Assembly (NCBI GenBank): GCA_964597575.1
Contig: CAZQXB010000001.1
Location: 842,892-906,891, forward strand
Direction: 5' to 3'
DNA length: 64,000 nt
Source of the DNA: an uncultured Gammaproteobacteria bacterium
GTDB taxonomy: Bacteria; Patescibacteriota; Patescibacteriia; Magasanikbacterales; UBA922
Shown here: piece after piece, positions 10,041 through 56,918 of the stretch
How the letters are laid out: the number at the start of each line of letters is the position of its first letter
Position numbering within the stretch: the first letter of the stretch is position 1
Translations under genes and position numbers: made by a program
The notes under the pieces: generated by a model
Databases searched by the model: none
The model's input: the letters and a program-made list of their open reading frames with translations, nothing else
What the model was told of the DNA's origin: nothing

Positions 10041-10481
10041 ATGCCACAGCTCGCCAAAAACAAAAAAGCCCATTTCGATTATACGATTCAGGAAACCACT
10101 GAGGCGGGCTTGAAGTTGCTTGGGCATGAAGTGAAATCGGTCCGTGACGGGCACATGAAACTCGCGGGAGCGTTTATTCATTTTCGCGGAAGTAAAGCGT
10201 TTTTGGTTGGGGCCGGTATTCCGCCGTACCCTTCAGCAGGGCCGCTCAAAGATTACGACCCAGCCCGAAGCAGAGAAATTCTTTTGCATAAAAAACAAAT
10301 TGATTATTTGCGTGGAAAAAGCGAGGAGCGAGGGTTGACAATTGTGCCTTTAGGCGTATATACTAAGGGCCGATATTTGAAGCTTGAAATTGGTGTGGCG
10401 CTTGGCAAAAAGGCCTATGATAAGCGTGAAACCATTAAGAAGCGTGACCTCGATCGCTCGATGCGACGCGGGGAAGAATGA
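10041..10481 (+). CDS. smpB: SsrA-binding protein SmpB.
   Basis: Full-length match to the SmpB family (KKAHFDYTIQETTEAGLKLLGHEVKS...GYTKGRYLKLEIGVA). tmRNA lies immediately downstream. Confidence 0.9.
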   Translation: MPQLAKNKKAHFDYTIQETTEAGLKLLGHEVKSVRDGHMKLAGAFIHFRGSKAFLVGAGIPPYPSAGPLKDYDPARSREILLHKKQIDYLRGKSEERGLTIVPLGVYTKGRYLKLEIGVALGKKAYDKRETIKKRDLDRSMRRGEE

Positions 10482-10493: not shown

Positions 10494-10888
10494 GGGGATG
10501 ATTGGTCTCGCTAGACGGACCAGTTATGCATATGTGCATGTCGAGGTTGCTTAACTCCTCGTAAAAAAATAAGCAATCATACGTGCAAACGTATTCCAGG
10601 GCGTGAAGAACGCAATTGCTCGCGCATTTGCCGTTCCTTCATTTGCCCCTGTTCTCGCCTAATACCGAGAACCATCGCTCCCGAGATACTCGATATCGGA
10701 TTCGCGGTGTAAACCCTTTCGAGCGTAGATGTTTGGTCGCTGGCCGACACTAAGCATTGAAGTTCTTTCGGCACAGCTTTGGTGGTTCTGTCGCCTCAAC
10801 ACACCGAAGCGCTTCTAGAGGCGGCAAAGCATGTTGACCATATCCATAACCCGCTCTACACCCGAGTTCGATTCTCGGCATCTCCACA
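10494..10888 (+). ncRNA. ssrA: Transfer-messenger RNA (ssrA).
   Basis: The 5' GGGGATG pairs with the 3' CATCTCC, including the G3-U wobble alanine identity element. The T-arm is CCGAGTTCGATTCTCGG followed by CCA-like ACA. There is a tag-ORF-like stretch ending GCCTAATA. Position is immediately 3' of smpB. Length is about 395 nt. Confidence 0.8.
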
Positions 10889-16237: not shown

Positions 16238-16311
16238 GGGCTGGTAGTTCAACTGGTTAGAGCACTGCCCTGTCACGGCAGAAGTTGCGGGTTCGAACCC
16301 CGTCCAGCCCG
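16238..16311 (+). tRNA. tRNA-Asp (GTC).
   Basis: Cloverleaf folded by hand: acceptor GGGCTGG/CCAGCCC, anticodon loop CTGTCAC, T-arm GCGGGTTCGAACCCCGT, discriminator G. Confidence 0.85.
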
Positions 16312-40938: not shown

Positions 40939-42138
40939 TTAATTTCCTACCTCCGGAATTCTCGGCTGTTCGGCAGTTTCTACTGCACTTTTCTCTGGCC
41001 GAAAACTTTGATATACCATCTCCATCACATGACGGTAGAGCACCGTGTCGGCTGACCCTTGGCGATACAGAAGAACATACACCTTATTTGGAGTATCTTT
41101 GTAGGCGACAAGACCATCCTGACGAACAAAGATTTCTTCCATGAATCGATTTGTTTTTCGATTAATATCACTAAAACGCTGAGATAGTGCTACGCGTCCA
41201 AACCACATTTCAAACGTTTCTCCTGGCAATTTTGTCATCGTACGGATCTCGATGAAATCTCCCGTAACAGAACTTACCAAGACTTGAGTGGCTGCAGTAT
41301 CTACGATACCTACGTCCCACGCCGACGGATAAAATAATCGCCAAGTATTCTCCGGATGGACAAACTCACGGACAAGTCCGGAATCAATAATTTTGACCGG
41401 AGCAAAACCGCTCGGATTATATAAATTTACCACTTCCTGACCATCAAAGTACCCGTCCGCATCACTATCCCAAGTACCACTGTCGGTTCGAAAAACCTCC
41501 TCCTCAATATCAGTAAGCGTATCTTTATCCACATCTTCTGCATCGACTAATCCTGTGAGAGGAAAAACAAGAGGTAATTCTCGAGACGGTGAGGTTGTTG
41601 GCACGGTCATTTCTGAGCTCGTAGAGGCAACGGGCGGAGGCACAATAACCGGCTCTGGTGCTACCGGAGGTGGGATAGGGACTGGTTCCGGCACAACCAC
41701 AAGTGGCTCATTCGAAGTATTGGGCTGTTCTGGAAGCGAACGCGCAACATACCACCAAGAAATGCCTCCGAGCACAATGATAGTGAGCCCCCCTCCAACC
41801 CAGAAAAGTAAACGCCCCCTCCCCTTTTGTGGCGGCTGCACCAGACCCACATCTTCATTTGGAGGCACGGGTTGAGCAACCTCTTCCAGAGCCTCTTCTT
41901 GAATCATTTTCGCAACATCCTGACGATGTGTTTGCGATAATTGACGTGAAACAGAGTTTTGGGATTCAACAGTAATTGCTTTTGGTACGACAGACGACTC
42001 CGATTTTGCGTCGGTATCAGCATAAACCACAGGGTTTGCTCCACCATAAAAAACATCAGGGATACGAGTCACTCTCGCCTGAAGTGGTGGAGCTGCCGGC
42101 GCTGTGGGTTCTGTTTTTTTCTTCGACCAGAAAGCCAT
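40939..42138 (-). CDS. Membrane-anchored Pro-rich protein with a thrombospondin-type-3-like Ca-binding motif (DTDSGTWDSDADGYFDGQE) and a C-terminal globular domain.
   Basis: Start set at MAFWSKKK. TM helix LLFWVGGGLTIIVLGGISWWYV. PxP-rich linker. Confidence 0.45.
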   Translation of the reverse strand: MAFWSKKKTEPTAPAAPPLQARVTRIPDVFYGGANPVVYADTDAKSESSVVPKAITVESQNSVSRQLSQTHRQDVAKMIQEEALEEVAQPVPPNEDVGLVQPPQKGRGRLLFWVGGGLTIIVLGGISWWYVARSLPEQPNTSNEPLVVVPEPVPIPPPVAPEPVIVPPPVASTSSEMTVPTTSPSRELPLVFPLTGLVDAEDVDKDTLTDIEEEVFRTDSGTWDSDADGYFDGQEVVNLYNPSGFAPVKIIDSGLVREFVHPENTWRLFYPSAWDVGIVDTAATQVLVSSVTGDFIEIRTMTKLPGETFEMWFGRVALSQRFSDINRKTNRFMEEIFVRQDGLVAYKDTPNKVYVLLYRQGSADTVLYRHVMEMVYQSFRPEKSAVETAEQPRIPEVGN

Positions 42139-42151
42139 AGAAAATAATTGT

Positions 42152-42976
42152 CTACAAGGTACGCGGAGAAGTCGTTGGTGGTTCAAAGATACGTCCGGCA
42201 CCTAAGGGGCTATATCCGTTTTTAATCTCTTCTTCATCGGTGTACCCATCATTATCAGTATCTGGGTTTTGCGGGTTACTCTTCCATGTTACCACTTCAT
42301 CATAATCCGACAAACCGTCACCATCGGTATCGAATCGTTTTGGGTCGGTTCCAATATCCCCTTCTTTCAAATCATCGAGGCCGTCGCCATCCGTATCAGG
42401 AACATTCCCGAACAAAATTGCATCATCAATAGGGTCGGTTTCGTCATCTTCTGTAGGTTCTGGAATCACACCACCACCTTGGGTATCTGACGGAATCACA
42501 CCGTCATTCTCATTCGGCACCTTGCCGCTATTGAGCGTAGGCGCAATATATGTTTTGTATGCCCAGTATCCACCAAACCCGAGACCTGCAACCAGGATAA
42601 GAATAGCAATAACCAAAAAGATGCTTTTAAAAATGGATGGCTCTTGGATACGGTATTCTGGATAGCTCGCTGGTGCCTCATGAAGTGGCTCTGTACCCCT
42701 TGGTGCTGGAACGTCTACCGGTCGAGCCATTGGTGTTTCTTCAAGAACTTCAAAATCGTCCGCGGGTAAAGGTTCTGCCAATTTTGGTGCCGCACTCGCC
42801 CGACGCACCTTCGGTTTAAGTACACCTGCCTCAAGAGCCGAGGGAGGGTCATCGCTCAAGCGAGGAGCTTCTTCTTTTGCCAATGCGCCAGAAAACATAT
42901 CTTCTGGCTCCCCAATAGGAAGATTTGATGGTACTTGCCCTCTGGTTCCCGAACCTGTCAATTGATCGTCGAACAT
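42152..42976 (-). CDS. Membrane-anchored protein with tandem thrombospondin type-3 (Asp-rich, Ca-binding) repeats.
   Basis: TM IFLVIAILILVAGLGFGGYWAY. Repeats DTDGDGLDDLKEGD, DTDGDGLSDYDE and DTDNDGYTDEEE. Confidence 0.5.
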   Translation of the reverse strand: MFDDQLTGSGTRGQVPSNLPIGEPEDMFSGALAKEEAPRLSDDPPSALEAGVLKPKVRRASAAPKLAEPLPADDFEVLEETPMARPVDVPAPRGTEPLHEAPASYPEYRIQEPSIFKSIFLVIAILILVAGLGFGGYWAYKTYIAPTLNSGKVPNENDGVIPSDTQGGGVIPEPTEDDETDPIDDAILFGNVPDTDGDGLDDLKEGDIGTDPKRFDTDGDGLSDYDEVVTWKSNPQNPDTDNDGYTDEEEIKNGYSPLGAGRIFEPPTTSPRTL

Positions 42977-42993
42977 ACAAACAGAATATATGG

Positions 42994-43395
42994 TTATGGA
43001 AGCTTCCCAGCCCCTCGTGGATTATACCCACCTAACACCTCAACGCCGTCAGAGAATGTATCTCCGTCAGTATCTGCCTTTGTTGGATCAGTTTTCGTAA
43101 GGTTTACCTCAAGCGCATCCGAGAGTCCATCACTATCCGAATCAAAATCGTTTGGATTGGTTTTTAGTTTTTTTTCTTCATCATTCGTTAACCCATCACG
43201 GTCATCATCATCGGGAAATGGGTTTGGGTTTGGGACCGGAGGAGGTGGGTCTACTGTCTTCACTTCCTCTTGATTTCCAATTATTTGTGGAGGAGAGGGT
43301 GATTTCGCGCTTGGCCGCAGGATGAAAAACAACCCGCCAACCAAGAGAATACCAGCAATAACGATTAGGATAATGCGACGCATGCGGCTGAACAT
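42994..43395 (-). CDS. Small membrane-anchored thrombospondin-type-3-repeat protein.
   Basis: TM at the N-terminus. DDDDRDGLTNDEE, DSDSDGLSDALE and DTDGDTFSDGVE. C-terminal GYNPRGAG motif shared with the neighbouring gene. Confidence 0.5.
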   Translation of the reverse strand: MFSRMRRIILIVIAGILLVGGLFFILRPSAKSPSPPQIIGNQEEVKTVDPPPPVPNPNPFPDDDDRDGLTNDEEKKLKTNPNDFDSDSDGLSDALEVNLTKTDPTKADTDGDTFSDGVEVLGGYNPRGAGKLP

Positions 43396-43444
43396 ATGGT
43401 GTATTATAGCACGAGAAGTCTATTCCCCAAATGAAGCCCCCCTT

Positions 43445-46400
43445 TTAGGTGTTGTTATGAATATCCACGATATCGGTTTCAATACTTCCATCACCAGTCG
43501 GACCAACTGGACGAATTTCATAGGTTCCTGTTGCTTGATTTCGAACAATGTTAAACACATGCCAGTAGTTCGCATTTGGATTTGAACTTGTACCTGCGAT
43601 ATTTCGAATTCTAAAGACACGGGGCGCATACACAGAACGAGCACTGTCTTGATCTTGCTGATATTCGTAGACCTCCACAATCAGACCTGGGTTTGCAACA
43701 TACCTCCCCATCGGCCGGACACTATCATCAACAAAATACTGGAACGGAGCACTCGTCTGAGCTTGACTCAGGTCGATTGTCAGTGCTTTGACAAATGTAT
43801 CCTCTAGCTGAATTTGTGGATGAACAAAGACGCGAGCCGTGCCGTCTGAAGTATTGAAGGTGGTACAGCCTGTTGACCACCAGTACGACTCATTCGGCCG
43901 GAGTGTCTGAAGGGAGATATTGTTGCAGAGATAATTTGTTCTTGACAAACGGGTTTGAGTATCCGCCACTGAAAAATCGATAATACGCCCAAAGACAGGA
44001 GAAAAATCATTATGATACAAGCGCCCCAAGAAACGCCCATCGTCCTCGGCACCAGACCAACGAAGAACGACACGGAAAACGTTTGGTGGTACCGCTGGAG
44101 AAAATACAAACTCACGAGTTACTTCCTGCTGTTCTCCATTTACAGGGAATGGAAATAAGGATCCTCGTCTCTGTGGCGTAAGCGGTTGACCAAATGCACG
44201 GCTGTAGCTCCCGATAAACATGCGATTAATATCAAGGTGGTACACGTCGGTACAAAGATTGTTGGTATTAATATTAAGCTGATCATTTAACCGAGCAGTA
44301 TTTGCAGGGTAGGCAAACACTGATCCTGGTTGTCTGAAACTAAAGAGGGCACTCACTTCTTCGGTTAACAAACGACTGCCTAAAAGGCCACGGAACGCCC
44401 AGGTTCGGAGAATGACACCTCCAGCAGAAGAAGACTCCTGGAGAACGAATCCTGCAGTAGACGAGGCACGAAGCATGCTCACCTCAGTTGACTGTCCCCA
44501 CGCATTCGCCCCACTTTGCGCATAATCAACGATAGGGTTAATTACGGCAATACGTGGATTTGCTCCACCCCCGGTAAAGTCGGCACAATCGACCAAACCA
44601 TCCCCATCATCATCAAGGCCATTCGTACAAATAGGATTTGTATTGTCGGTATAACGGCAGTTCGTTGCCTGACCTGGCGCACACTGCACTCGATTTGCCC
44701 CTGACGAACAAAGCGCATCCTGGCAGCTTGGCTGCGAAGAAGAACCGTTCACGCGGCACAAACCCTGCTGCGCGCTACATGTTTCAATAACTCCACAAAC
44801 CGTACAGTTATCTACGAGACGGCGGCAGTTATTTTGACAAGAAAACGCTCCTCGATTCGCCGTAGGAAGCGTTCCTCGGCTACAGGTAAGTGCAGGGCCG
44901 TTTGCAATAGTGCTCGTTGTTACACCCCCGGTCGAAAGAGTGTCGCATACTTCTCCAGCATCTCGCTGAACAATACCATCACCACAATATGTTATCGGAT
45001 CACGGGTAACTGTAGTACATTCTGCCGAACACAATGTTACTCTCTGACCATATGGTGGATTTTGCGGTACAAGGCCGTTCGCATCCGCCTCATCACACGT
45101 CTCTCCTAAATTACTCTGAACAATTCCATCACCACAGAATGGACCGGCATTTGGATTTGAAATTACAACATTCGTTCGACGGAAACAGAGGTTCGAACAC
45201 GAGTCTAAGTTATCGGTATTGCCGTCGTCACACTCTTCATGCGGCTCATTCACAAAACTATCCCCACAGTATCCTCCCGTAGCCTGACAATCAAACGAAC
45301 AACTTGCTCCCCGAAGCGGATGATAGGTTGGGCGGGCGGTGAGTACACATGAATCTCCAGAAGAGCACTGACTATCCTGATCACAGGCAGTAGCCGCAGC
45401 ACAGTATGTCGATCGAGTAAATCGTAAAAATTGGTTTAACCCTCGGAACAGTCCAATAATCTGATTTCCTGGAGCAAATTCAATTGTTCGTACAAATCCA
45501 TTATTATTTGGCGTGGAAACCACCACCCATCGCTCTCCTCCATTGTTTGTAGCCCAAGCAGCGTACCCTGCTTGTCCACTGAATCCTTGGTACAAAACGA
45601 TACGATCCAAAACAACTACAGTCTGTGCATCGAGGAGGGCAATAGCGCTCGGACCGGCAGAAGAAACAATTGCACGGTCAGGCGCCGGAAGATCAAGGGA
45701 AGTCCATGTTACACCGCTGTCTGTTGTACGAAAGACGCGACGAGATGCATCGGTTACCAAATACCCCAAATTTCTGTTTGCAAATACAAAGTCGACTTGC
45801 TCAGTTGCAGGATTTTCAGGCAACCGTTGCGCCACCCACGTTAACCCACCGTTGGTGGTACTGAAAAATCCTGCGGTTCCGTATGCAAAGCCTGTTTGCT
45901 GATCGATAAATTGTAATTTTGAAATCGAAGTATTTGCCGCAAGCGGTGCGTACGATTGCTGCGACCAAGTGTCACCAGCATTTTCTGTTCTCCACACATT
46001 TTCCCCTGTTCCAGCAACGTACACCATAGTTGGGGAAACCGCATGAACAGCCTGAAGCACCACTCCCGAAGTATTTGGAATTTCGCGAGTAGTCCAATTG
46101 GCGCCACCGTTACTCGTCCGCATTAAAATTGCATTCCGTGAACCTCCAGTCTGCGCTCCGACAGCAAACCCAACCTGCGCATTCAAGAAGGTGATACCGC
46201 GCAAAATGATGCCGGTTTCTTGACGACTCACGCTCCAGCCAAAACCTGAGAATCTCATAATCGACGCACGATTCTGCGCTGTGTCAGTCATAACCGCCCA
46301 CGCACTCTGTTCACCCAAAACCGAGAGAGATTGAGCACCAATAATTTCTCCAGGATTTGGGGTGAGAAGAGGAACTACCGTCACATCAAACCGAGGATCA

Positions 46401-49400
46401 CGACAGGATTGCTTGTCACAGAACCCTCTTTGGAACTGTGGTTGTGATTTCTCACAAAATTCAAGCGGAGCATTTGTCGCAGGGTCAACATCGATTACCA
46501 AGTTCGCTGCAACAGCAGCATCTTCGCCACATGCTAAATCTGACAACCCGGTACAACTCGCGTTACATCTTCCATACTGCTGCCCATTCACTCGGCCATC
46601 GTCACACACTTCTGGAGCTTCAATAACCCCATTACCGCAAAGGCCCGTTGCTCGGCACTGACCAAGCACAAGCCGGCACTCATTCGTACACTCAGTGGTG
46701 CGAATTTGCCCAGCCGAACAACCGTTCGTCGTAGTGCCTCGGCTATTCGCCGGATTATCACATTCTTCGCCTGGGTTAATAATTCCATTTCCGCAAACAC
46801 CTGCAGACGGACTTTGTGGGGTACCCACGCACCAACGCGTTACAGATAAACGATCAGTATCCAAAAGACCATCCACAATACCGGTTTCACCTGAAAAATA
46901 TTCAAGTGGAACATGGAGCTGGTAATTGGTGCCGTCGGCACGAACACTATATTCGTACATACTTGCCGAAGCTGGGCATTGAAATGTCGCCACATCAGGG
47001 CTCCAGCAAGTTTGAGGGTCAATCCCATCACACCCACTCCATGTGTTTAACGGGTCACTTGGGATAGCTCCACCAAGCGCCCCGGCGAGCGTACCACCCC
47101 AAGATGGCCAACGAGAATTGGTATATCCTGGAATATATGTCCCCGAATTAAGCACAGGAAAACGACCACCATTGAGAAGTGAGGCATTCAACGCTAAGTT
47201 CTGGAATGAGCTTGCATCCTGCAAACGATCCCAGTCACGAAGCATCTTCGTGCGTGCATTTGCACAGATACGATTTCCAGGAAGAGCACTGCACTGACTA
47301 TCAACGGAACAAGCGATATTACTCTGAAGATCTGGTGTTGAAATATCTTCCCGATCTGTTCCATTACCGACGGAACAGTACCCAACATCGCTCAAGTTAA
47401 TGTTGAAACGAATGGAGTTAACAAGAGAGGTGAAGACTCGTTTTGTATTATCAGAAGCATCTGCATTTACCGTAAAAAGATACACGAAACTTCCCACTTC
47501 ATTGCGCTCTGACTCATCATACTGATTAAGCGCATTAATGTAGTACGTATTTCCATCAGTGAGGGCTTCGTACCCATCAACAGTAACGGAACGCATGGTT
47601 GATGGAACTTCACCAAACTTCTCACGATACCACTGTCGAAGAGGACGGAGAGATGACACTGTTGGACCACCACTAGCGACCGGAACCGGCGGCACAACAG
47701 GAGCTGATCGAGTTAGGGTAAAACGAGTCGAGAAACCTTGTGCCTGCGTCCCTTCTTCCACCACAATAATTTCATACAAACTATCTGGAGCTGGCTGAAG
47801 AACTCTCTGAGGAATGGTGATATAAGCCGAACCATCATTTACGATGTTACCCGTGAGATCAATCTGACCATTAGTGTCATTTGAATAAGCGTAACGTCCT
47901 TGGTCGTCGAGAACAAGCAGAAGGAGACTCAGTCGCACCTGCTGACCTGGCTGACCACCTCTCCACTGAATAAGCACGGGTTCGCCGATTGGGAAATCTG
48001 ATCTGGTTGCAGCCGAGTCAACAAACCGAAGAGCTCCTCCGTCTGGAGTGACAGCGGGCGGAAGAGGAAGATTCGGAGCTGCTGGAGGTGGCGGTGGCGT
48101 CGCTGACCCACCTACGGCACGAGTCGTGTTGTTAAAAATCTGGAATCCAATAGCATCATCATTTTTTTCATTAAAGAAGAAAATACGACGCACAGAATCT
48201 CCAAATGGAGGAATAGGTGAAGTACCATTCGCACCTAAAATGCTTGGTCGCAAATATGGCAAGTCGTCTGTTATATCACCTGTTCTTCCGGCATCAGCGC
48301 AGTATCCGAATCGAACATTTCCGAAAATAGTATCACTACCGAGGGCAATACCTGGAATTGACTGGCCCGTAAATACACCGCCCGTGTAATCATCGTTGTT
48401 CGCGTTTCTTCCTCGCGAAACCCCATCTTCATACGGATAAATTCCACGCGGTGGCCACGGACGTTCACAGAAAAACGTGATTAATTCTGCAGTGTCAGAA
48501 AAACGTGGAAGAGTTGTGCCAGTAGCCGCCAAACGATCTTCTGTCACGCGAAGTTCAGCCACTAATGTTCCTGTTTCCCCTTGACCCAAGTTGCGAGAAC
48601 GGACCGTTGCCTGGTCTGACGCACCAGTATTTCCTGCGGCTGGAATTACAAACGCTGGGTGGGTTGATGGACCCCAGCTCCACACCCAATTATAAATTCC
48701 AGGAATTGGTGCGATGGCGCGGTTGTTCAATGTTCTCGCTGTCGCAATAAAATCGGTTGAAGTGTTTGGAGCTGTAAAAAGATATGATTCCGGTTCCACG
48801 GTCACAGACTCTACACGACACACATCTCCCGTTTGTGTACGGAACACCCAAGAACTTGCGGACGTACCGACGGAGTTTGTATCCGGGCGAATGCCTACCC
48901 CTCGAGTATTTTCTATACCATTTACCCCACCCTGAAGAAGGACGGCGTATGTAGTACCCGCATCAAGAAGTGAAGTAAGCTGCAAACGAACTCGCGTTTC
49001 TGTAACAACACCACTTGCGTCGGTTACCGGAGTGACGGTTGGAACAAATCGAATCTGCCCACCACACCAAGATCCTACGTTTATTTGATCCGGTCGAAGA
49101 GCCGAAGCAAATGCCTGCCCCTCAAGTAGTGCGCGGAAAAAATATCGAACACGATAAATCGTTCCACGGAAAAATCCTTCTGGTGGATTTTCGTACGCGA
49201 GTGTACCGCGGACCACAGTGGTCACATCATCGTTCGTCCCCTGACATGGCACTGCTGAGGCACCGACCGCATACCCTCGCGCAATCAAGATATTGTCTTG
49301 AAGTGATGCTTCATCAATTTCACCAGAAAGCGTAAATTCAATGAGGGTATTTCTACATGCCGCTTCAGACCCATTAAACCCGGTTCCGTCTGCAGGATAA

Positions 49401-52400
49401 GTAGAGGTACGCTCAGGACGAAGTTGGCAACATGAATTCGTACCAACCCCATATCGATTCAAAGCATTCCCACTATTTTGGGGGCAATTATTATATTGAT
49501 TCGCTTGTGGAGCATTATTTGCATACTCTTCAAAACCACATTGAAGTGCGTACGCACCACTGCCTCGTACCGAAAGGGTTCTCCCCCCGGTCGTTGCGAT
49601 GGCTTCGGCCTGGATTGTCGTTTCTTGTCGGCCGTCCGCAGGGATGTTTGTAGAAGCGCCAACTGCAGTCACAATCTGCGTTGCATTTTGACCAAGTGGT
49701 ACCCGTGTTCCAAGATCACCTGGTTGATACTCACACATTGCGTACTCCCCTATCCCTCGAACACCGTCTCCACACAATGAAGGTGTGCCGTACGAAATAT
49801 CTGAGCCACGCAAGGTACAATTCTCTGTACACCCTTCGGCGTTTCGATCACAACGGAATGTATTTGGAATAGTAGTTTCACTGCAAATATTTCCAAGTAA
49901 ACACCGTGAGGAGCATACACCAACATCTTGGACCGCAATAGGATTTGGTTCGCCATATACGCGAATCGTACCAGCGCTTCCAGGATTTCCTGTAACAATT
50001 TCACATGCCTCACCGCGATTAACAACCCCATCACCGCAAATACTCACTCCCCGATTGCGGCAAGCAGAAACAACCTCAGCCGAAGTACCCACAAGAGGTC
50101 GCGATTCACACCAACTTGCAGCAAGCGATGGTACACCGATATTCAAACACGTAGAGGTACAGCTTTCGTTCTCAACTGCCCCGTTTACTCCTGGTTCACA
50201 CTCTTCTCCTGGGGAAACAGTTCGATCACCACAAAACGGCGCACCGCTTGTTGCAATACCCGGAGTAAAGCGATCACTTGTCCCTGTTCTTAAACATCGT
50301 TCGTTACAAAAACGTACATCAGGGCTCCCTGTGGCCGGATCACACTCCTCACCACCTTCAACGGTGGCGTTACCACACTGGCCAGGTCCGGTACCACGAT
50401 TCGTATTTCCGGGTCGAAGACAGGTGAGGGTACAGGTTGTACCAACCACTTCTCCATTCGCTGCCACATCACAGTCTTCACCAACATCAATACGTCCGTT
50501 ACCACACATTGATCGGTTCGGCGCACCTACAGCCAACGTTGAACCGAGTGGAATACAGGTTGCGGTACACTGACTTCGTGGTGACCCAAGGCTTGAAAAG
50601 GTAGTAACACGGGCAACGGCCGGATCAGCACTTCCCCAGCGCCATCCAAATAACCAAGGGTTTAATTCTTGCCCCAAAGCACTGCATTGATCTGGGGAAC
50701 TTTGTGGAAGAGCAACATATCCGGTAGTTTCGCCAATAGTTGTTGCAGTAAAAGGAGTTGGCTCCACCTGAACACTCGCGGCCACACAGAATCCATCACT
50801 CGATTTTGTACGGAATCTCCAAGAGAACGGAGCGAGAGGATTTCCAGGATTGGTTGAACCGATGGCAGATTGCGCACGAATCGTATCCGCGACAGTAACA
50901 AGGTACCAGGTATTTTCAAGAAGTGGTGTTTGCGAAGGTGGAGCAAACCGATACAACATTGGGTTACCGCCCTCAACCACATCAAAAAAGATTTCTTCGG
51001 CTCTGACCGCACACAAAGCGTCGGCACAGCGATACATACGCACAGCGCCCGGATACGTATCTGGAAGCATCATTTGGTTAAATCGGATACCGATACCCGC
51101 ATTCGTACATGACTCACTACAATTTGGCCAAAAACCAACCACCCGTGGATCCCCAAGATCAACGGTAAGAGTACTTACCGCCGTAATAACTGGGGCACCT
51201 GGTTGGCTTGACACAGCTCGGATTTGAGCCGTATTCGGAGCACTGTTTGCAAGTGCCGTAACCGTTGCTCGTGAATCAGTAAAATCAGGAGGATCACGGT
51301 CAAGAAGAACTCGTGCATACGCATTTCCTGGGGCTGGCACTGACCAATTCCACCCTAAACCATCCGCACGAATAACAGTACACGCTTCATTCGGAGCACC
51401 CCACACATAGTAATAGAAAGGATGTGGCGGGCTAAGCACATTCGTCGTCACGCGAGGATAGCTTGGGTCCTGGAGCATCCCAAGCATGTTTGTCGTGTAT
51501 GTTGGAGGACGAATGAACGCATTCGCAATTTCACACCGACGACTCCCTGCTTGGAAGGTAAAGCAATAGGCAGTTCCTGCGCCACACGGACGAGTCGCCA
51601 AAATCGGTTCGTTTACCGTAACTTGTCGACTTAAAATTTCTCTTGTTTCGTTCGAACGGATACCCGACCCGAGTTCAACACGATACCACGTGTCTGCGGT
51701 AAGCACAGCTCCTGCACCACGTGGACGAGCAACGACATTCGGATTCTCATATCGGATATCGAATTGATCGGTAACATTCACCCGATTTGAACAGTTCGCA
51801 CTGGTGCCATTTCCACAAGTATAGATACGCGTATTCGCGACAACACTTGCCGGATCCATTTCCACAGTAAACCGGGCATTAATTTCCGCATTGATACACG
51901 CGGCTCCACGGAGAGTTTGAACATCTGGGGTTGGAGACGGCATGGTTGAAGAACCCTGTTCACAAAATTCGTCCACTTGTGGCAAACGACTTAATTGCCC
52001 AGTGGTAAAACGCCATACATATCCGGCATTCCGACTCTCTCCAGGACACGATTGATTTTCTGGGAGAAAACTTCCATCGGTGCAGCAACGAAGTCCAGCA
52101 GGAATCTGACTTTGCGGCAAGGCTCGGCAATCTTCTACGGTATAGGTCAAACTATTTGATAACTGACCACCTGAACCAACCCGAATTGGACCAGTTTGCA
52201 TCGTTACACCGTTTCTCTCAGGAATTGGGGTCAGAATCTGCGTCGCAGTAAGAATTTGGGCTTCAGGAGCACGAGTTGAGAGCCACGTTGTGACATCATT
52301 CGCCACAGCGCCGCGCGTCCAAAAATAGGTTGTCGCTGCTGCTGCAAAATTAACCCCGGTTAAAGTAAGACCTGGGCTTGCAGGAGCAAGTGGAGCTGGA

Positions 52401-54802
52401 CCACGTGCAGGGGAAATACGACAAAGACCAGGGCGAGGGGTACCGGCCTGAACAGTGAGGCGCGCCGTGTTAGCTAATTGAGTTTGAAGACCATTCGTCG
52501 TTCTGACCGTTACATACCACTGACCCGGAGCAAGAGTTGTAGGAACTTGAACCACAACACTCTCGGGAGTCCAGGTATCACCACACGCCGGAGGCAAAGT
52601 CACTTGTGCCGCCACACAGCCAGCGGGCATGTTTGGGGGTGCACAAACGAGGCTAATATCATTCGCAAAATAAACATTCCCTGTAGCTCCCCCGAATCCC
52701 CGACCAGCAAGTGTAATCAAACTCCCCGGGGTCGTGGTTTCAGGGTCAATCGCAGTAATAGAAGGCAGTGAAGCATCGTCCGGAGAAAGAATGGTAAACG
52801 GAACAGCATTACTTGAAACTCCATCGATAACTGCAGCCACAGAAACAACTCCGGGTCGGAGGCCGGCTGGTACGCGAGTATCAACACGTGCATCCGCCCA
52901 CGAAGTGACTGGTGCACTGGCAAGCCCGAAACGAAGCTCACGATTTGTGCCCCCTGAAAACTGCCCAATAGCACGGGCATCCGTTGAAGGAAGTCCGGCT
53001 GAAACACCAGCGCCGACTTCTACACGACATAAACGAGGACGATTGGTCGTATTTTTCAAAAACAAGCCGTTACGAGTACCCCCACGAGGACCACGACTAT
53101 CGATCGTGGTATCAGTAAGAGTATTATTATCCGCTCGAACGATACGAATCGCAGAAAAAGACCCTTGCGGCAAGGCCGCGTCTCCTGGGACTTCAACCAC
53201 GGTATATGTGTCAGTCCAAGTAACCGCTCCACCACACGTTGCAGGAGCGGCCGTAATCCATTCGGCACCAGCAATCGTACCACTATTATCACGATCAATT
53301 CCGAATTGAACTTGCCCTGGAGTTGTTCCAAAAAAACGACCACTAACCGTCACCCATGAACCGGCCGCGGCATCCCACGGATCAACATTCGTAATAAGCG
53401 GACTCGATACACACTGTCCTGAAACACACTGCCCAGATGCACATTGCCAATTTTGCGCACACTGCCCAACCCCTTGGCAGGAACCGCCAGCATCAACGTC
53501 CGTTTCGTCGCCATCTTGGACACCGTTACCACAATGCGCTGCCACGCTTACAAAAGTAGTACTTGCGGTTGCGCGATTTCCATCAATGTCATAGGCAGTC
53601 GCTGTAACAACATATCGCTCACCCGGACGAGTATTTGCGGCCAAAAATAAACGGTATGTGTATACGAATGGATCAAGAACTGTCGTTCCAGATCCACGCG
53701 CAATGGTTGGGCCACCAACCGAAACAATCGAGGCCGCTCGGCCTTCTTGACCAATATCAAGCCGAACGTACCCTGCACCCGTATTGTCGGTCATTGGTAC
53801 TGAAATTTCCACTTCACGATTCACGGGAAGTGGCTGATCATTAGCACGAACACCATCGACAGAAATACCACCGGGAATAACCGGAGCGGTAACATCGAGA
53901 GTGTTTGGCGTATTTACTCGAAACGTTGCTTCTCGTGGAAAGTTGCCACAGGCAACAGATTCTTGAATGCTTCCCCCACGAGCATCGACCACGGTATTGC
54001 GAACACTGACACGGTATTCCCCTGAAGGCATACACCCATTTGTGCCGGCACACACCGTAGCACCCGTATAGGTAGCTTCAAGCACTTGGTTCGCTGGATC
54101 AGCAAAACGGAAAGAGAAGTCAGTCACGGGTTCGCCGTCTCGCGTAATGGTAACCACCTGATTCGCAGCGGTTCGAACACCACGGCTAAACACCACACGA
54201 ATAGTGGCGTTATTCATGTTTGTTGTTTCTGTGCGTGGGGTGATACTCTGCACGATAAAATTATCACGGCCGCAGCACCATGACGGATTTGAGGAGCAAT
54301 TAAGCGATGGCCCGGTTCGCCCACACAATTCGTCGTACCGTGGGTCATTTGCTAACGCAAGATCAGCACAACTTGCAAGAGGATCACTTTGCCCCAAACC
54401 CGTTGCTCCCTGAAGCCGAGTTAACACGAAACGGCTGATGGCAAAAGCAGAAAGAACAATCACAAGACCAATTGCCCCGTTCATAAGGATTTTACGCGCG
54501 TCCTCCACCTTACCCTCATCCCCTCCTGCGGTCATGTACGTAATACCACCATAGATCACGATACCAACTGCAATAACCGAAAGAAGGCCGAGAAAAATAT
54601 TAATAATCCGAGCCACGATGACACGGATATCGGTTCCGGCTAAATTACTCGCACCGTCAAATGCCGTTACCCCAAGCGCATCATTTGCTTCTTGCGCAAA
54701 TGTGATCTGAGGAAGAAAAACAAAAACGGCTGCTAGGAAAATGAAAAAGGAAATAGCGTGCAGGGCGCGGGCTCGAGAAAAAAAAGACATGAGGCGGGAC
54801 AT
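43445..54802 (-). CDS. Giant extracellular protein of about 3785 aa. It has an N-terminal signal peptide plus two-TM module, many Myxococcus-type Cys-rich repeats (CGNG/CGDG ... GEECD ... C), Ig-like/beta-rich regions and a C-terminal block of BNR/Asp-box repeats (S-x-D-x-G-x-T-W).
   Basis: Single uninterrupted ORF. Start set at MSRLMSFF. At least 11 CG[ND]G-x(5-9)-GE[EA]CD repeats. Five BNR motifs (TSNGGANWTT, TENAGDTWSQ, TTNGGLTWVA, TTDSGVTWTS, TNNGGERWVV). Confidence 0.7.
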   Translation of the reverse strand: MSRLMSFFSRARALHAISFFIFLAAVFVFLPQITFAQEANDALGVTAFDGASNLAGTDIRVIVARIINIFLGLLSVIAVGIVIYGGITYMTAGGDEGKVEDARKILMNGAIGLVIVLSAFAISRFVLTRLQGATGLGQSDPLASCADLALANDPRYDELCGRTGPSLNCSSNPSWCCGRDNFIVQSITPRTETTNMNNATIRVVFSRGVRTAANQVVTITRDGEPVTDFSFRFADPANQVLEATYTGATVCAGTNGCMPSGEYRVSVRNTVVDARGGSIQESVACGNFPREATFRVNTPNTLDVTAPVIPGGISVDGVRANDQPLPVNREVEISVPMTDNTGAGYVRLDIGQEGRAASIVSVGGPTIARGSGTTVLDPFVYTYRLFLAANTRPGERYVVTATAYDIDGNRATASTTFVSVAAHCGNGVQDGDETDVDAGGSCQGVGQCAQNWQCASGQCVSGQCVSSPLITNVDPWDAAAGSWVTVSGRFFGTTPGQVQFGIDRDNSGTIAGAEWITAAPATCGGAVTWTDTYTVVEVPGDAALPQGSFSAIRIVRADNNTLTDTTIDSRGPRGGTRNGLFLKNTTNRPRLCRVEVGAGVSAGLPSTDARAIGQFSGGTNRELRFGLASAPVTSWADARVDTRVPAGLRPGVVSVAAVIDGVSSNAVPFTILSPDDASLPSITAIDPETTTPGSLITLAGRGFGGATGNVYFANDISLVCAPPNMPAGCVAAQVTLPPACGDTWTPESVVVQVPTTLAPGQWYVTVRTTNGLQTQLANTARLTVQAGTPRPGLCRISPARGPAPLAPASPGLTLTGVNFAAAATTYFWTRGAVANDVTTWLSTRAPEAQILTATQILTPIPERNGVTMQTGPIRVGSGGQLSNSLTYTVEDCRALPQSQIPAGLRCCTDGSFLPENQSCPGESRNAGYVWRFTTGQLSRLPQVDEFCEQGSSTMPSPTPDVQTLRGAACINAEINARFTVEMDPASVVANTRIYTCGNGTSANCSNRVNVTDQFDIRYENPNVVARPRGAGAVLTADTWYRVELGSGIRSNETREILSRQVTVNEPILATRPCGAGTAYCFTFQAGSRRCEIANAFIRPPTYTTNMLGMLQDPSYPRVTTNVLSPPHPFYYYVWGAPNEACTVIRADGLGWNWSVPAPGNAYARVLLDRDPPDFTDSRATVTALANSAPNTAQIRAVSSQPGAPVITAVSTLTVDLGDPRVVGFWPNCSESCTNAGIGIRFNQMMLPDTYPGAVRMYRCADALCAVRAEEIFFDVVEGGNPMLYRFAPPSQTPLLENTWYLVTVADTIRAQSAIGSTNPGNPLAPFSWRFRTKSSDGFCVAASVQVEPTPFTATTIGETTGYVALPQSSPDQCSALGQELNPWLFGWRWGSADPAVARVTTFSSLGSPRSQCTATCIPLGSTLAVGAPNRSMCGNGRIDVGEDCDVAANGEVVGTTCTLTCLRPGNTNRGTGPGQCGNATVEGGEECDPATGSPDVRFCNERCLRTGTSDRFTPGIATSGAPFCGDRTVSPGEECEPGVNGAVENESCTSTCLNIGVPSLAASWCESRPLVGTSAEVVSACRNRGVSICGDGVVNRGEACEIVTGNPGSAGTIRVYGEPNPIAVQDVGVCSSRCLLGNICSETTIPNTFRCDRNAEGCTENCTLRGSDISYGTPSLCGDGVRGIGEYAMCEYQPGDLGTRVPLGQNATQIVTAVGASTNIPADGRQETTIQAEAIATTGGRTLSVRGSGAYALQCGFEEYANNAPQANQYNNCPQNSGNALNRYGVGTNSCCQLRPERTSTYPADGTGFNGSEAACRNTLIEFTLSGEIDEASLQDNILIARGYAVGASAVPCQGTNDDVTTVVRGTLAYENPPEGFFRGTIYRVRYFFRALLEGQAFASALRPDQINVGSWCGGQIRFVPTVTPVTDASGVVTETRVRLQLTSLLDAGTTYAVLLQGGVNGIENTRGVGIRPDTNSVGTSASSWVFRTQTGDVCRVESVTVEPESYLFTAPNTSTDFIATARTLNNRAIAPIPGIYNWVWSWGPSTHPAFVIPAAGNTGASDQATVRSRNLGQGETGTLVAELRVTEDRLAATGTTLPRFSDTAELITFFCERPWPPRGIYPYEDGVSRGRNANNDDYTGGVFTGQSIPGIALGSDTIFGNVRFGYCADAGRTGDITDDLPYLRPSILGANGTSPIPPFGDSVRRIFFFNEKNDDAIGFQIFNNTTRAVGGSATPPPPPAAPNLPLPPAVTPDGGALRFVDSAATRSDFPIGEPVLIQWRGGQPGQQVRLSLLLLVLDDQGRYAYSNDTNGQIDLTGNIVNDGSAYITIPQRVLQPAPDSLYEIIVVEEGTQAQGFSTRFTLTRSAPVVPPVPVASGGPTVSSLRPLRQWYREKFGEVPSTMRSVTVDGYEALTDGNTYYINALNQYDESERNEVGSFVYLFTVNADASDNTKRVFTSLVNSIRFNINLSDVGYCSVGNGTDREDISTPDLQSNIACSVDSQCSALPGNRICANARTKMLRDWDRLQDASSFQNLALNASLLNGGRFPVLNSGTYIPGYTNSRWPSWGGTLAGALGGAIPSDPLNTWSGCDGIDPQTCWSPDVATFQCPASASMYEYSVRADGTNYQLHVPLEYFSGETGIVDGLLDTDRLSVTRWCVGTPQSPSAGVCGNGIINPGEECDNPANSRGTTTNGCSAGQIRTTECTNECRLVLGQCRATGLCGNGVIEAPEVCDDGRVNGQQYGRCNASCTGLSDLACGEDAAVAANLVIDVDPATNAPLEFCEKSQPQFQRGFCDKQSCRDPRFDVTVVPLLTPNPGEIIGAQSLSVLGEQSAWAVMTDTAQNRASIMRFSGFGWSVSRQETGIILRGITFLNAQVGFAVGAQTGGSRNAILMRTSNGGANWTTREIPNTSGVVLQAVHAVSPTMVYVAGTGENVWRTENAGDTWSQQSYAPLAANTSISKLQFIDQQTGFAYGTAGFFSTTNGGLTWVAQRLPENPATEQVDFVFANRNLGYLVTDASRRVFRTTDSGVTWTSLDLPAPDRAIVSSAGPSAIALLDAQTVVVLDRIVLYQGFSGQAGYAAWATNNGGERWVVVSTPNNNGFVRTIEFAPGNQIIGLFRGLNQFLRFTRSTYCAAATACDQDSQCSSGDSCVLTARPTYHPLRGASCSFDCQATGGYCGDSFVNEPHEECDDGNTDNLDSCSNLCFRRTNVVISNPNAGPFCGDGIVQSNLGETCDEADANGLVPQNPPYGQRVTLCSAECTTVTRDPITYCGDGIVQRDAGEVCDTLSTGGVTTSTIANGPALTCSRGTLPTANRGAFSCQNNCRRLVDNCTVCGVIETCSAQQGLCRVNGSSSQPSCQDALCSSGANRVQCAPGQATNCRYTDNTNPICTNGLDDDGDGLVDCADFTGGGANPRIAVINPIVDYAQSGANAWGQSTEVSMLRASSTAGFVLQESSSAGGVILRTWAFRGLLGSRLLTEEVSALFSFRQPGSVFAYPANTARLNDQLNINTNNLCTDVYHLDINRMFIGSYSRAFGQPLTPQRRGSLFPFPVNGEQQEVTREFVFSPAVPPNVFRVVLRWSGAEDDGRFLGRLYHNDFSPVFGRIIDFSVADTQTRLSRTNYLCNNISLQTLRPNESYWWSTGCTTFNTSDGTARVFVHPQIQLEDTFVKALTIDLSQAQTSAPFQYFVDDSVRPMGRYVANPGLIVEVYEYQQDQDSARSVYAPRVFRIRNIAGTSSNPNANYWHVFNIVRNQATGTYEIRPVGPTGDGSIETDIVDIHNNT

Positions 54803-54818
54803 ATGGTAAAACAAGGGT

Positions 54819-56918
54819 CTATCGAACTCCAACCGGACTAATTGCCGGTCTCTGTAAAACAGAAATACATGCAGGAATATCTGCTTGTACTCGCAAATTT
54901 TGACCCCCTTCTTGCAGCTGGGTCGTCTGAATGCATCCGGTATCTTGATCCACATTCGTCTGAGGCAATACCGGTGCACAGTTAGTTGAACGAACCACTA
55001 CTCCGTCAGCATTTTCCTCGTAATCACACATGGTAGGAAGTCCAGGAGAATTTGCGATTGGTCCACGACCGGGGTAAAAACAATTCTGGTTTGCCCCGCG
55101 AACACTACTTGGAACACGGACAAAGTAGTAGAACGGCTGTCCATTTGGACCGAACATTCGATGACGAAGTGTTACACGCGTAGAGAGAATACCGAGTGCG
55201 TCTGAAACTGACTCTGCTATTGGAGCAACCCAAGGAGCCTCGATGCCAGCTGGTGCAGGGTGTTCAGTAAGGCCAATATCAAGCAGGGTCGAAGGCCACA
55301 TAGCGCCCGCAAACGTCATTTCCGTTGGAGCATCACTTTGTACCGCTTCTTCGTCAATCGCAGGGCGAACTTCTCGAATATACGGCACACTCCGATCAAT
55401 AAGCGGCTCTACTTCAAAACTCCACCAAAAGTTATCAGGCGCCTGTTCTGTTGCACTTGCCCGGAGACTGGTTACGATTGACGGCTTATGAGGGTCTGCG
55501 AGACGACCATCACCCGGAAAAACTCCATTTCCATTTCTCGCTCCGCTACTGCTATCAAGGGCATTCCCGGCCATATCCATAACCCCACTAAATGGTACGG
55601 CCTCAAAACTATTACCAATAACATCTGCGGTACGAATAAGAACCGTAAGTGGGTTTGCACAAGCAGCATTGCTGTCATCGGTACAAATGGTTGGCAAACA
55701 ATACATGGCATCACCGCAACTATTGCGGCCACACGGCTCACTTGGGATAAATTCAACTGACTGATATCCATTCGATACGCGCCATTCTCCAGATGGCATC
55801 ACCCCATTCGCTGCGCTTGATCCAAACACAATATGGGTAAATACACCGGTTTGCCCCTGCACCACTGTTGGATCCATGGCCTCATTAAACTGCACCTGTA
55901 CAATGGTATTGCGAGCAATATCTGAAGCGTGATTCGGATAAATTTGTGTAACGCGTGGCGGAATGGTGTCGAGTTCAGTATTAGTTTCAAAATTCCAGCT
56001 ATAGCGCTGCGCACGCTCATTCGCAAAGATACTCGCACTTCTATTTTGCACCTGAATACCAGTAAGCAAATCAACAGTGTAGCGTACAGCATCTGTTTCA
56101 TTCCCCAAAAGTTCGAGTGGGCGAAAAAGTACCGTTCGAACGGTTCCGTCTCCGGCATAGCTGAGAATTGCCGCAAGCTCCACCCCAGATGGAGTACCTG
56201 AGGCGGTTAAACGAACTGCGGCCGTGGCTCGATCACAATCAAGACTCCAGTCCATAGGGCGGGCAGCAGGGGTAACACAGTCACCGAAAATACCGTTTCC
56301 ATTTCTATCGTCAGCGATACTGCCAGGGTAAACAGCCTCACGAAAGGTAACTGAAATACGACTATTTCGTGGGACATCACGCTGATTTCGGAACGGATAA
56401 TGATCGCGCACAGCACGCCCAAGAGCCCCACTCGCAAAAAAGGTGTCGCCTGTATTTCCTTGAGCAACAAACGCACCAGAGCCTGTTCCTGTTGCTCCGG
56501 CGAAACGAGATAAAATAAATCGAGTAATCCCCCAAGCTGACATGATAATAATGAGCCCAATGATGGCATTGGTAATAATCCTTCGACCTTCAGCAACAGC
56601 ATCTTCATTTCCATTAGAAAAGAGAATCTTCCCCCCTGCGTATAAAATAAGCCCAACCGTAATAATTCCAAGTAACGTTAAGAAAATATTAATAATCCGC
56701 AAAGCAATCACCCGAATGTCGGTTCCAGCAAGTGGCAGGGCATTATCAAGCGCCGTTACGCCAAGGGCGTCTGTATTGTCAGGAACATTCTGAGCAAAAC
56801 TAACCGTCAAATCAAAGGCTCCAAAAAAGCTAGCAACAAAAAAGACTGCCACAAGAAGTACCCCGAGGGTATGTGCAGTCTTCTTTGAGAATATATATTG
56901 TGTGAACCCCGGAAGCAT
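54819..56918 (-). CDS. Large surface protein (699 aa) with the same N-terminal signal peptide plus two-TM module as the giant protein. Paralogous upstream partner.
   Basis: N-termini align: ...ALGVTA[LF]D ... AGTDIRVI ... RIINIF ... YGG / ...NA.IGL.I..SA..I.RF.L.R.AGATG.G. Confidence 0.6.
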   Translation of the reverse strand: MLPGFTQYIFSKKTAHTLGVLLVAVFFVASFFGAFDLTVSFAQNVPDNTDALGVTALDNALPLAGTDIRVIALRIINIFLTLLGIITVGLILYAGGKILFSNGNEDAVAEGRRIITNAIIGLIIIMSAWGITRFILSRFAGATGTGSGAFVAQGNTGDTFFASGALGRAVRDHYPFRNQRDVPRNSRISVTFREAVYPGSIADDRNGNGIFGDCVTPAARPMDWSLDCDRATAAVRLTASGTPSGVELAAILSYAGDGTVRTVLFRPLELLGNETDAVRYTVDLLTGIQVQNRSASIFANERAQRYSWNFETNTELDTIPPRVTQIYPNHASDIARNTIVQVQFNEAMDPTVVQGQTGVFTHIVFGSSAANGVMPSGEWRVSNGYQSVEFIPSEPCGRNSCGDAMYCLPTICTDDSNAACANPLTVLIRTADVIGNSFEAVPFSGVMDMAGNALDSSSGARNGNGVFPGDGRLADPHKPSIVTSLRASATEQAPDNFWWSFEVEPLIDRSVPYIREVRPAIDEEAVQSDAPTEMTFAGAMWPSTLLDIGLTEHPAPAGIEAPWVAPIAESVSDALGILSTRVTLRHRMFGPNGQPFYYFVRVPSSVRGANQNCFYPGRGPIANSPGLPTMCDYEENADGVVVRSTNCAPVLPQTNVDQDTGCIQTTQLQEGGQNLRVQADIPACISVLQRPAISPVGVR

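Follow-up and report, generated by a model that had tools for sequence, protein, structure and literature searches.

A conserved five-gene block in Patescibacteria encoding two large proteins with a VirB2-like hairpin and three thrombospondin type 3 repeat proteins

What purpose is served by a giant protein that begins like a small secretion pilin? This question is raised by a block of five co-directional minus-strand genes at positions 40939-56918 of a 64,000-nucleotide stretch of contig CAZQXB010000001.1 (the window, meaning this whole stretch of DNA). The original prediction, made from the sequence letters, had proposed five minus-strand open reading frames (ORFs) here, and ORF calling recovered all of them at these coordinates, with products of 699, 3785, 133, 274 and 399 aa (p699, the giant, t133, t274 and t399). 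The two large proteins share a pilin-type N-terminal module, and the three small proteins carry thrombospondin type 3 (TSP3) repeats. On sequence and model evidence, our preferred reading is that the block encodes a hairpin-anchored fiber, stabilized by calcium and disulfide bonds, that would bind a partner or host cell; we hold this tentatively, at somewhat short of an even chance. The features of the block are as follows, with a slash marking a cleavage site here and below.

54819..56918, minus strand: p699, 699 aa; ORF with signal peptide, VirB2-like hairpin, disordered linker and tandem immunoglobulin (Ig)-like ectodomain
56793..56918, minus strand: p699 signal peptide, aa 1-42; hydrophobic aa 13-42, predicted cleavage SFA/QN
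56490..56720, minus strand: p699 pilin-type hairpin, aa 67-143; AlphaFold2 helices, PF18895 match at aa 68-135
43445..54802, minus strand: the giant, 3785 aa; VirB2-like hairpin behind a signal peptide, followed by ~3650 aa of Ig-rich, Cys-rich ectodomain
54695..54802, minus strand: giant signal peptide, aa 1-36; hydrophobic aa 10-39, predicted cleavage TFA/QE
54410..54631, minus strand: giant pilin-type hairpin, aa 58-131; PF18895 match at aa 59-125, hydrophobic segments at aa 58-92 and 104-131
45653..46237, minus strand: giant beta-propeller (BNR/Ycf48/sortilin-like), aa ~2856-3050; Pfam PSII_BNR and Sortilin-Vps10
43448..44554, minus strand: giant conserved C-terminal region, aa ~3417-3785; defined by alignment to relatives, no Pfam family
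42994..43395, minus strand: t133, 133 aa; N-terminal membrane anchor, Pro-rich linker, TSP3 repeats, C-terminal GYNPRGAG
42152..42976, minus strand: t274, 274 aa; cytoplasmic N-terminal NLPIGEPEDMFS motif, one transmembrane (TM) helix, three TSP3 repeats, GYSPLGAG
40939..42138, minus strand: t399, 399 aa; IPDVFYGG motif, TM helix, Pro-rich linker, two TSP3-like Ca sites, PsbP-like domain

Two of the gene starts were chosen among alternatives. The ORF of the giant extends over 43445..54979, and 54802 is the first Met with a signal peptide behind it, giving 3785 aa; the public gene call of the identical contig starts four codons later (3781 aa). The t399 ORF begins with GTG at 42201, and its ATG version is 40939..42138. 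The window sequence matches a Logan contig identically.

A pilin-type module at the N terminus of two large proteins

Comparison of the N-termini of p699 and the giant by BLASTP revealed 47% identity over 138 aa (E = 7e-30), and no significant alignment was obtained between the two proteins outside this region. The shared module that had been proposed is therefore real, at a level far beyond chance, and measures about 140 aa, not 170 aa. Both copies matched the Pfam family PF18895 (T4SS_pilin, where T4SS denotes type IV secretion system), with 32.0 bits for p699 and 32.7 bits for the giant at a gathering cut-off of 26.6, and the match spanned profile positions 5-71 of 71, which is its full length. 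PF18895 was present in all 65 scanned relatives of p699 (best E = 6e-15). The TrbC/VirB2 family PF04956 gave no match at E ≤ 0.01 in p699 or the giant and was matched by 12 of the 65 scanned relatives of p699 (best E = 7.6e-8). The NCBIfam model NF045849 (Mbov_0395, pilin-like, from a Mycoplasma integrative and conjugative element) scored 25.9 and 31.1 bits, under its 40-bit cut-off; its name, 'pilin-like conjugal transfer protein', was given by NCBI to the homolog P0219, and some family members carry the NCBI labels 'pilin' or 'pilin-like conjugal transfer protein'.

Hydropathy analysis identified three hydrophobic segments in each large protein, namely a signal peptide and two helices. An AlphaFold2 model of p699 built from a 65-sequence alignment (mean predicted local distance difference test score, pLDDT, 87.5) contained helices at residues 11-32, 68-99 and 105-143, followed by a disordered linker of ~20 aa. 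Residues A42 and Q43 of p699 were nearly invariant across 65 homologs, residues A36 and Q37 of the giant were invariant in alignment A3, and cleavage was predicted at both sites. Agrobacterium VirB2 is also cleaved before Gln, which serves here as a lead. A class III signal peptide (G/F-x-x-x-E) was not found in p699, which starts MLPGFTQYI, without Glu at +5, in a stretch that is unconserved in the family; the giant has no prepilin-peptidase motif, and neither large protein has a Pfam N-terminal methylation match.

The hairpin was the best-conserved part of the p699 family, with a median all-against-all identity of 59% compared with 42% for the ectodomain; the signal peptides and linkers of relatives were ~30% identical to those of the window protein. 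Judged by sequence, conservation at 59% is unusual for a mere membrane anchor. Because the hairpin is more conserved than the ectodomain, it probably does more than anchor, for example through self-association or through docking to a T4SS or other pilins.

When the module was used as query in a word-indexed search, 39 proteins were retrieved. Nearly all of them were stand-alone pilins of 96-150 aa, with E down to 3e-18; the two top matches were N-terminal fragments of fused proteins. One stand-alone relative sits within a six-pilin gene array, and another adjoins a gene with DUF8128 and a faint match to TrwB-type coupling proteins. A profile of the hairpin searched against PDB sequences gave no VirB2 or TraA chain, just chance-level matches to HtrII transmembrane segments (E > 2), and we therefore base the assignment to pilins on Pfam, stand-alone relatives and family context, not on a solved structure. 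p699 and the giant are not themselves small pilin subunits, which have precursors of ~100-150 aa, since ectodomains of ~550 and ~3650 aa follow the hairpin. The VirB2/TrbC-like N-terminus suspected at the outset is supported by PF18895 scores above the cut-off in both proteins, by the AlphaFold2 hairpin and by small pilins as the nearest stand-alone relatives. The module is also more than a generic signal peptide plus TM helix, as its conserved motifs persist on wide alignment.

Using residues 1-140 of the giant, an exhaustive phmmer search returned 26,258 cluster representatives at E ≤ 1e-3. Among the best 150 of these, 48 were proteins of 2000-5289 aa with one N-terminal module, 32 were proteins of 600-773 aa with one module and 37 had 2-8 tandem modules. 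Because long one-module proteins are so frequent among these best 150 matches, the fused architecture is common in public data. Many proteins of ~190-930 aa are made up of 2-8 tandem T4SS_pilin modules and may be called polypilins (P0237-P0365, e.g. P0253, 820 aa; P0036 and P0038), the 37 just mentioned being of this kind; no mention of such concatenated proteins was found in the literature searched.

Ectodomains, TSP3 proteins and gene order

Beyond the hairpin, p699 matched the Pfam family Big_5. Its residues 167-699 were modeled by AlphaFold2 as tandem beta-sandwich domains with pLDDT >90, and Foldseek matched these exclusively to Ig-like arrays (LdtMt2 BIg domains, DSCAM, titin and protocadherins). 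On this ground we ruled out that p699 hides an enzyme. p699 has 189 homologs, and among the 120 matches listed most were 630-760 aa in length.

The giant carries Big_5 domains at aa 183-279 and ~1219-1332, a TIG domain at aa ~680, a Kre9_KNH Ig-like domain at ~2266-2363 (all by Pfam) and Cys-rich acidic repeats (DUF4215) at aa ~1433, 2670, 2722, 3176-3273 and 3388. The propeller yielded the sole match of the whole giant among PDB sequences, to Ycf48. The protein contains 128 Cys, and this Cys-richness is kept in its homologs (median 3.7% vs 0.2-1.1% in housekeeping proteins), which fits a protein predicted to be extracellular and disulfide-bonded. Alignment with most relatives covered aa 1-2230, 2388-2790 and the C-terminal 3417-3785. 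The propeller region aligned in the closest relative, L002, and not in the other relatives reaching it; three relatives on long contigs were without a strong propeller match, and two of them carry VWA or Laminin_G_3. The C-terminal region at aa ~3417-3785, for which Pfam gave no match, was 26-34% identical to the C-termini of the giants in loci L019, L021 and L023. At the level of sequence, the pattern is one of a conserved putative stalk with exchangeable distal modules.

The composition of both large proteins is unusual in a further respect. Lysine is near-absent from the giant and p699 (0.3% and 0.6% K, with 6.3-6.6% R); for comparison, it makes up 6.4% of the housekeeping proteins in the window and 3.5-6% of the three TSP3 proteins. 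Lysine depletion as a family trait was ruled out by homolog medians of 4.5% and 4.6% K (minima, 0.4% and 0.6%), and by composition the scarcity is a quirk of at least this genome.

Each of the three small proteins has one hydrophobic segment by hydropathy. TSP3_bac (PF18884, cut-off 25) matched t133 with 47.9 bits (E = 1.1e-12) and t274 with 50.1 bits (E = 2.3e-13). The hydrophobic segment of t133 is at aa 1-30; t274 has its TM helix at aa 110-140 and D-x-D-x-D-G repeats at aa 194, 216 and 239. t133 and t274 share 45% identity over 60 aa, a stretch that takes in the terminal GY[NS]PxGAG. t399 itself had no Pfam match; profile comparison by hhalign aligned its two Asp-rich repeats with those of t274 (probability 97.5%, E = 6.5e-12), and TSP3_bac matched 12 of 52 t399 family members. 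TSP3 repeats had been claimed for all three small proteins, and the claim holds through Pfam for t133 and t274 and through profile alignment to t274 for t399. A shared C-terminal G-Y-[NS]-P-x-G-A-G motif had also been claimed; it is exact in t133 and t274, and in t399 it is degenerate (NLYNPSGFAP) and internal.

We found 76 homologs of t399. Residues D202, D204 and D206 and residues D224, D226, D228 and D232 were invariant in 52 of them. In an AlphaFold2 model of t399 (mean pLDDT, 79), residues 109-134 form a TM helix. A disordered, Pro-rich linker and a globular region (~aa 190-380) were also modeled, and in the latter the block means of pLDDT mostly exceed 93. Foldseek matched the globular domain best to BT_1490 and CyanoP/PsbP and more weakly to SciW, a DUF1795 chaperone (E = 5e-4 to 5e-2); Pfam PsbP gave a weak match in 2 of 52 family members. 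We tentatively assign this modeled C-terminal domain to the PsbP-like fold.

Conserved cytoplasmic N-terminal motifs precede the TM helix in the t274 family (NLPIGEPEDIFS) and in the t399 family (IPDxFYGGxNPxIY). The short t274 motif can also be read as MFDDQ...VPSNLPIGEPEDIFS. The FtsZ C-terminal peptide, LEIPAFIRKK, encoded 3 kb downstream, loosely resembles these motifs. The idea that they mimic this FtsA-binding peptide was set aside, as the spacing differs and IPDVF stands in place of IPAF, and the motifs are kept as an unexplained feature.

By Pfam scan of the window ORFs, the block lies downstream of lepB, hisS, rpsU (S21) and yqeY and upstream of ybeY, dgkA, ftsA, ftsZ, nrdR, pyk and ppdk, and its internal intergenic gaps measure 2-49 nt. 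The predicted run into ybeY-dgkA-ftsA-ftsZ is thus present, with all four genes following the block. We then examined gene order in relatives, scanning one genome per GTDB species with a four-sequence alignment of the module as query. This analysis revealed 17 loci, most of them named Candidatus Magasanikbacteria or Patescibacteria. Third-party annotation records of metagenome-assembled genomes at L002, L005, L009, L010, L012, L014 and L018 are titled 'uncultured Gammaproteobacteria bacterium', which looks like mislabeling. The order lepB-hisS-S21-(yqeY)-[537-744-aa fused pilin]-[giant fused pilin] was observed in 15 of 15 loci showing both positions. In L016 the first fused-pilin gene is split into two ORFs, in L008 (4630-15007) the giant is split into ORFs of 2276 and >1181 aa, and the cut loci L011 and L017 each show one member of the fused pair. 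Giant homologs in the related loci measure 2276 to >3500 aa, and across the GTDB-genome loci identity drops as low as 30% in p699 and 25% in the giant.

The downstream half of the block is conserved in the same way. In three loci on long contigs, reached through t399 homologs, a giant of 3683-3872 aa with PF18895 is followed by a 130-150-aa protein (TSP3_bac match in 2/3), a 270-340-aa TSP3-type protein (Pfam match in 2/3, BLAST match to t274 in 3/3), the t399 homolog and then ybeY-dgkA-ftsA-ftsZ. Wherever the downstream end can be seen (7 of 7 non-duplicate loci), small TM/TSP3 proteins and a t399 homolog are encoded between the large protein and ybeY, and this arrangement is kept with the most distant t399 homologs, at 23-27% identity. 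Counterparts of t133 (130-169 aa) follow the large fused pilin in L019, L021, L023, L025 and L026, and syntenic homologs of t274 are found in L003, L019, L021, L023, L025, L026 and L027. In L027 (3549-9233) a single fused pilin of 1894 aa lies directly after yqeY, and behind it come one TSP3 protein and the t399 homolog. Overall, 24 of 24 non-duplicate loci had one and the same order, lepB-hisS-S21-yqeY-[fused pilins]-[TSP3 proteins]-ybeY-dgkA-ftsA-ftsZ, as far as each could be seen, down to ~25% identity. The genes are syntenic in every relative whose region is visible. In our preferred reading the block is a lineage-wide, vertically inherited surface module of Magasanikbacteria-type Patescibacteria (GTDB class ABY1).

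Several features elsewhere in the window are recorded here for completeness. Positions 1-7000 have 59-62% G+C, compared with ~46-49% in most of the window, and contain ORFs without a Pfam family; one of these (406..2580, minus strand, 724 aa) looks secreted and Cys-rich; it contains collagen-like G-x-y triplets as well as consecutive 7-aa repeats (NPDAAPS / VFPDA[AT]P), visible in the DNA as a 21/42/63-bp tandem repeat at 953..1197. This region could be horizontally acquired or an assembly join. Positions 16238-28400 have low G+C (33-38%), start at a tRNA-Asp gene (16238..16312) overlapped by a large serine recombinase gene (16273..17931, minus strand), and carry NERD, DUF4238 and PG_binding_1 genes as well as several ORFs without a family; the region looks like a mobile element integrated at a tRNA gene. 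The smpB gene (10041..10481) lies directly upstream of the tmRNA gene (10494..10887), which encodes the tag peptide ARAFAVPSFAPVLA. Two plus-strand genes break the minus-strand string, one at 59837-61057 (SH3_3 and CAP) and one at 29239-30486 (SH3_3); the former has a counterpart in the identical Logan contig, called there as 358 aa.

A candidate attachment fiber and its alternatives

In the attachment fiber that we favor, Sec would export p699 and the giant, signal peptidase I would cleave both at the conserved A/Q site, and the VirB2/TrbC-type two-helix hairpin would hold each protein in the cytoplasmic membrane with both ends outside. Because such a hairpin is N-out/C-out, the whole C-terminal part would be extracellular; an extracellular ectodomain is likewise indicated by the cleavable signal peptide together with an even number of helices, by Cys-richness and by Ig-like folds. 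The Ig-like domains of p699 would form a short stalk. In the giant, the conserved proximal stalk would give reach and the variable distal modules specificity, the distal module being a beta-propeller here and VWA or LamG in relatives. The three small proteins would be tethered to the membrane and directed outward on Pro-rich linkers, presenting their Ca2+-binding TSP3 repeats, to which t399 would add a PsbP-like, protein-binding domain. Together they would surround the two stalks as a collar or base stiffened by Ca2+. The fiber may be presented by a T4SS pilus. Giant membrane proteins of Vampirococcus, which are thought to mediate host attachment, provide a precedent (PMC8080830). From domain content, predicted topology and conserved adjacency, it is reasonable to suppose that the five products may form one apparatus and that this may mediate host attachment.

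Several points weigh against this interpretation. The flanking genes lepB, hisS, S21, yqeY, ybeY, dgkA, ftsA, ftsZ, nrdR and pyk are as collinear as the block itself, so that synteny alone is no proof of functional coupling and the gene order could simply be frozen. A consensus scan found promoter-like sites at a count below the shuffle mean, and hence not above chance; no obvious strong terminator was seen, with a terminator-like count ~2 sd over the shuffle mean. No domain of proven adhesin specificity was found, and the modules present (Ig-like, propeller and Cys-rich) are of generic kinds. Incorporation into a pilus would account for the high conservation of the hairpin at least as well as a simple anchor would. 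Finally, Magasanikbacteria are, to our knowledge, a lineage without a known host.

The alternative that survives best takes up the point about the hairpin. It holds that p699 and the giant are modular VirB2 pilins, the hairpin being extracted and polymerized with stand-alone pilins by a T4SS encoded elsewhere, and that they serve as tip or interspersed adhesins. The first subunit incorporated would stay at the tip, a role like that of VirB5 in diderm systems and parallel to that of modular type IV pilus (T4P) pilins. In F and T pili the pilin's C-terminus is found on the filament's outer side, which makes a fusion at that end geometrically possible. Such incorporation would suit a hairpin that is the best-conserved part of the p699 family, that remains 47% identical between paralogs with non-aligning ectodomains and that matches PF18895 over positions 5-71 of 71. 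The ~20-aa disordered linker before the cargo is likewise as found in modular T4P pilins (PMC8179133).

The wider genomic setting bears on this alternative in both directions. VirB2-like pilins and pilin arrays have been described in Patescibacteria and are essential in Southlakia (PMC10633639, PMC12102498, PMC12857230); in a cultivated Saccharibacterium the role of these essential T4SS pilins is unexplained (PMC10633639). Genomes of Magasanikbacteria (class ABY1) are listed as VirB4-positive and with a coupling protein, and in GCA_000990355.1 the VirB2 hits are dispersed and not near virB4 (PMC12102498, Tables S1 and S3). The fused pilins may have been counted as VirB2 under the survey criterion of >50% hidden Markov model (HMM) coverage (PMC12102498). 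In our own data, however, no Pfam family for VirB4, VirB6, VirB3/PrgI or TrsD was found in the ORFs scanned across the 64-kb window, no T4SS gene was found among the called genes of related loci, and no pilin module beyond the two fused genes was found in the window or in the fetched locus flanks. In addition, a cargo of 3650 aa far exceeds any known tolerated pilin fusion, a VirB2-type pilus is so far unseen in Patescibacteria, and the ectodomain is itself long enough for a fiber. We regard pilus incorporation as unlikely but worth serious consideration. Its most ambitious form would make these the first 'modular VirB2 pilins', with the hairpin nucleating or capping a monoderm T4SS pilus, tip adhesins of up to ~5000 aa and the TSP3 trio as a Ca2+-dependent assembly platform; we give that form a low probability.

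A further alternative treats the block as two unrelated units, fused pilins on one side and a separate envelope- or divisome-associated TSP3 set on the other, which are neighbors through frozen gene order. The equally conserved order of the flanking housekeeping genes is what such freezing would produce, the 49 nt that separate the giant gene from t133 contain a TGcTATAAT-like sequence, and TSP3 repeats occur in many unrelated envelope proteins, e.g. CglD and MtsD. Against this, the promoter scan was not above chance and the intergenic gaps are just 2-49 nt. The adjacency also survives divergence to 23-27% identity and changes in copy number (one or two fused genes, and one to two TM/TSP3 genes before the t399 homolog). 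Coincidental adjacency appears improbable to us.

Least convincing is an envelope scaffold or S-layer-type coat, in which Ig-rich proteins and TSP3-bound Ca2+ would form a structural layer or wall-spanning scaffold, needed by every cell and possibly coordinated with division, and not a host-specific adhesin. Big_5 is an Ig-like type found in S-layer proteins, and S-layers are commonly Ca2+-dependent. The block is present in every related locus recovered, within a housekeeping string directly upstream of ybeY-dgkA-ftsA-ftsZ, and the conserved cytoplasmic motifs of t274 and t399 suggest coupling to an intracellular partner. Yet those motifs are only loosely like the FtsZ C-terminal peptide, with IPDVF for IPAF and a different spacing; Pfam found Big_5, TIG and other Ig-like domains in p699 and the giant and no SLH or other S-layer anchoring domain; and a protein of ~400 kDa with variable distal modules would be atypical as a lattice subunit. 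We hold a scaffold to be quite improbable. Because the housekeeping flanks are equally collinear, both this explanation and coincidental adjacency keep some probability beside the attachment fiber.

Relation to known systems

The block was originally put forward as not a described system. VirB2-like pilins and giant surface proteins of the candidate phyla radiation are both known, and in this respect the claim was too broad; a VirB2-type hairpin fused to large ectodomains, or linked to TSP3 proteins, was not found in the searchable literature, and in this respect it stands. If the most ambitious form of pilus incorporation were true, host capture would give the enigmatic, essential T4SS pili of this phylum a concrete function. 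The one Patescibacterium amenable to genetics depends on its T4SS pilins, and what these do and whether they form a pilus become testable questions. The large conserved family provides a natural experiment in which the same hairpin carries hundreds to thousands of extracellular residues. A hairpin with a large extracellular cargo would place the pilin C-terminus outside the cell, and evolution appears to have drawn on the module repeatedly for holding or presenting adhesive cargo. Candidate host-range determinants for Magasanikbacteria are seen in the exchangeable distal modules (propeller, VWA and LamG), and the fused-pilin family offers candidate targets for cryo-electron tomography, metaproteomics and multimer modeling. 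The five-gene block is also a clean synteny marker for proteins whose current labels are split among 'hypothetical', 'Ig-like domain-containing' and 'pilin'.

The closest known relatives are the T4SS pilins of Patescibacteria (Wang et al. 2023, PMC10633639; Quinonero-Coronel et al. 2025, PMC12102498), which share the Pfam family PF18895, the phylum and the combination of signal peptide and hairpin; the nearest stand-alone relatives of our module lie in pilin arrays. The described pilins are small, stand-alone proteins, usually encoded close to virB4 and in many cases within divergent arrays (mean identity, 25%). In the fused pilins, by contrast, the hairpin makes up the N-terminal 4-20% of 699 or 3785 aa, its median identity is 59%, and the genes lie in a housekeeping string with no T4SS gene within 64 kb. 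Modular T4P pilins such as PilB of Streptococcus sanguinis (Raynaud et al. 2021, PMC8179133) resemble them in having an N-terminal pilin module, a short linker and a bulky functional or adhesive module, which the filament is proposed to display. They belong to another filament superfamily (IPR012902), with a class III signal peptide and a single N-terminal helix, and the largest named in that survey has 860 aa (PMC8179133), compared with 699 to >5000 aa for the fused pilins.

The giants of Vampirococcus lugosii (1392-4163 aa; Moreira et al. 2021, PMC8080830) are similar in size, membrane location, repeated interaction or adhesion domains and presumed host recognition. Unlike the proteins described here, they belong to the lineage Absconditabacteria, with no pilin-type anchor or conserved partner genes reported (PMC8080830). 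The Myxococcus proteins CglD and MtsD (PF18884) have Asp-rich DxDxDG Ca2+-binding repeats in extracytoplasmic segments, as do the three small proteins of the block. This similarity is confined to the repeats, with scores far under the family cut-offs (28 bits vs 400), whereas t133, t274 and t399 are short single-pass proteins distinguished by Pro-rich linkers, the GY[NS]PxGxG motif and, in one of them, a putative PsbP-like domain.

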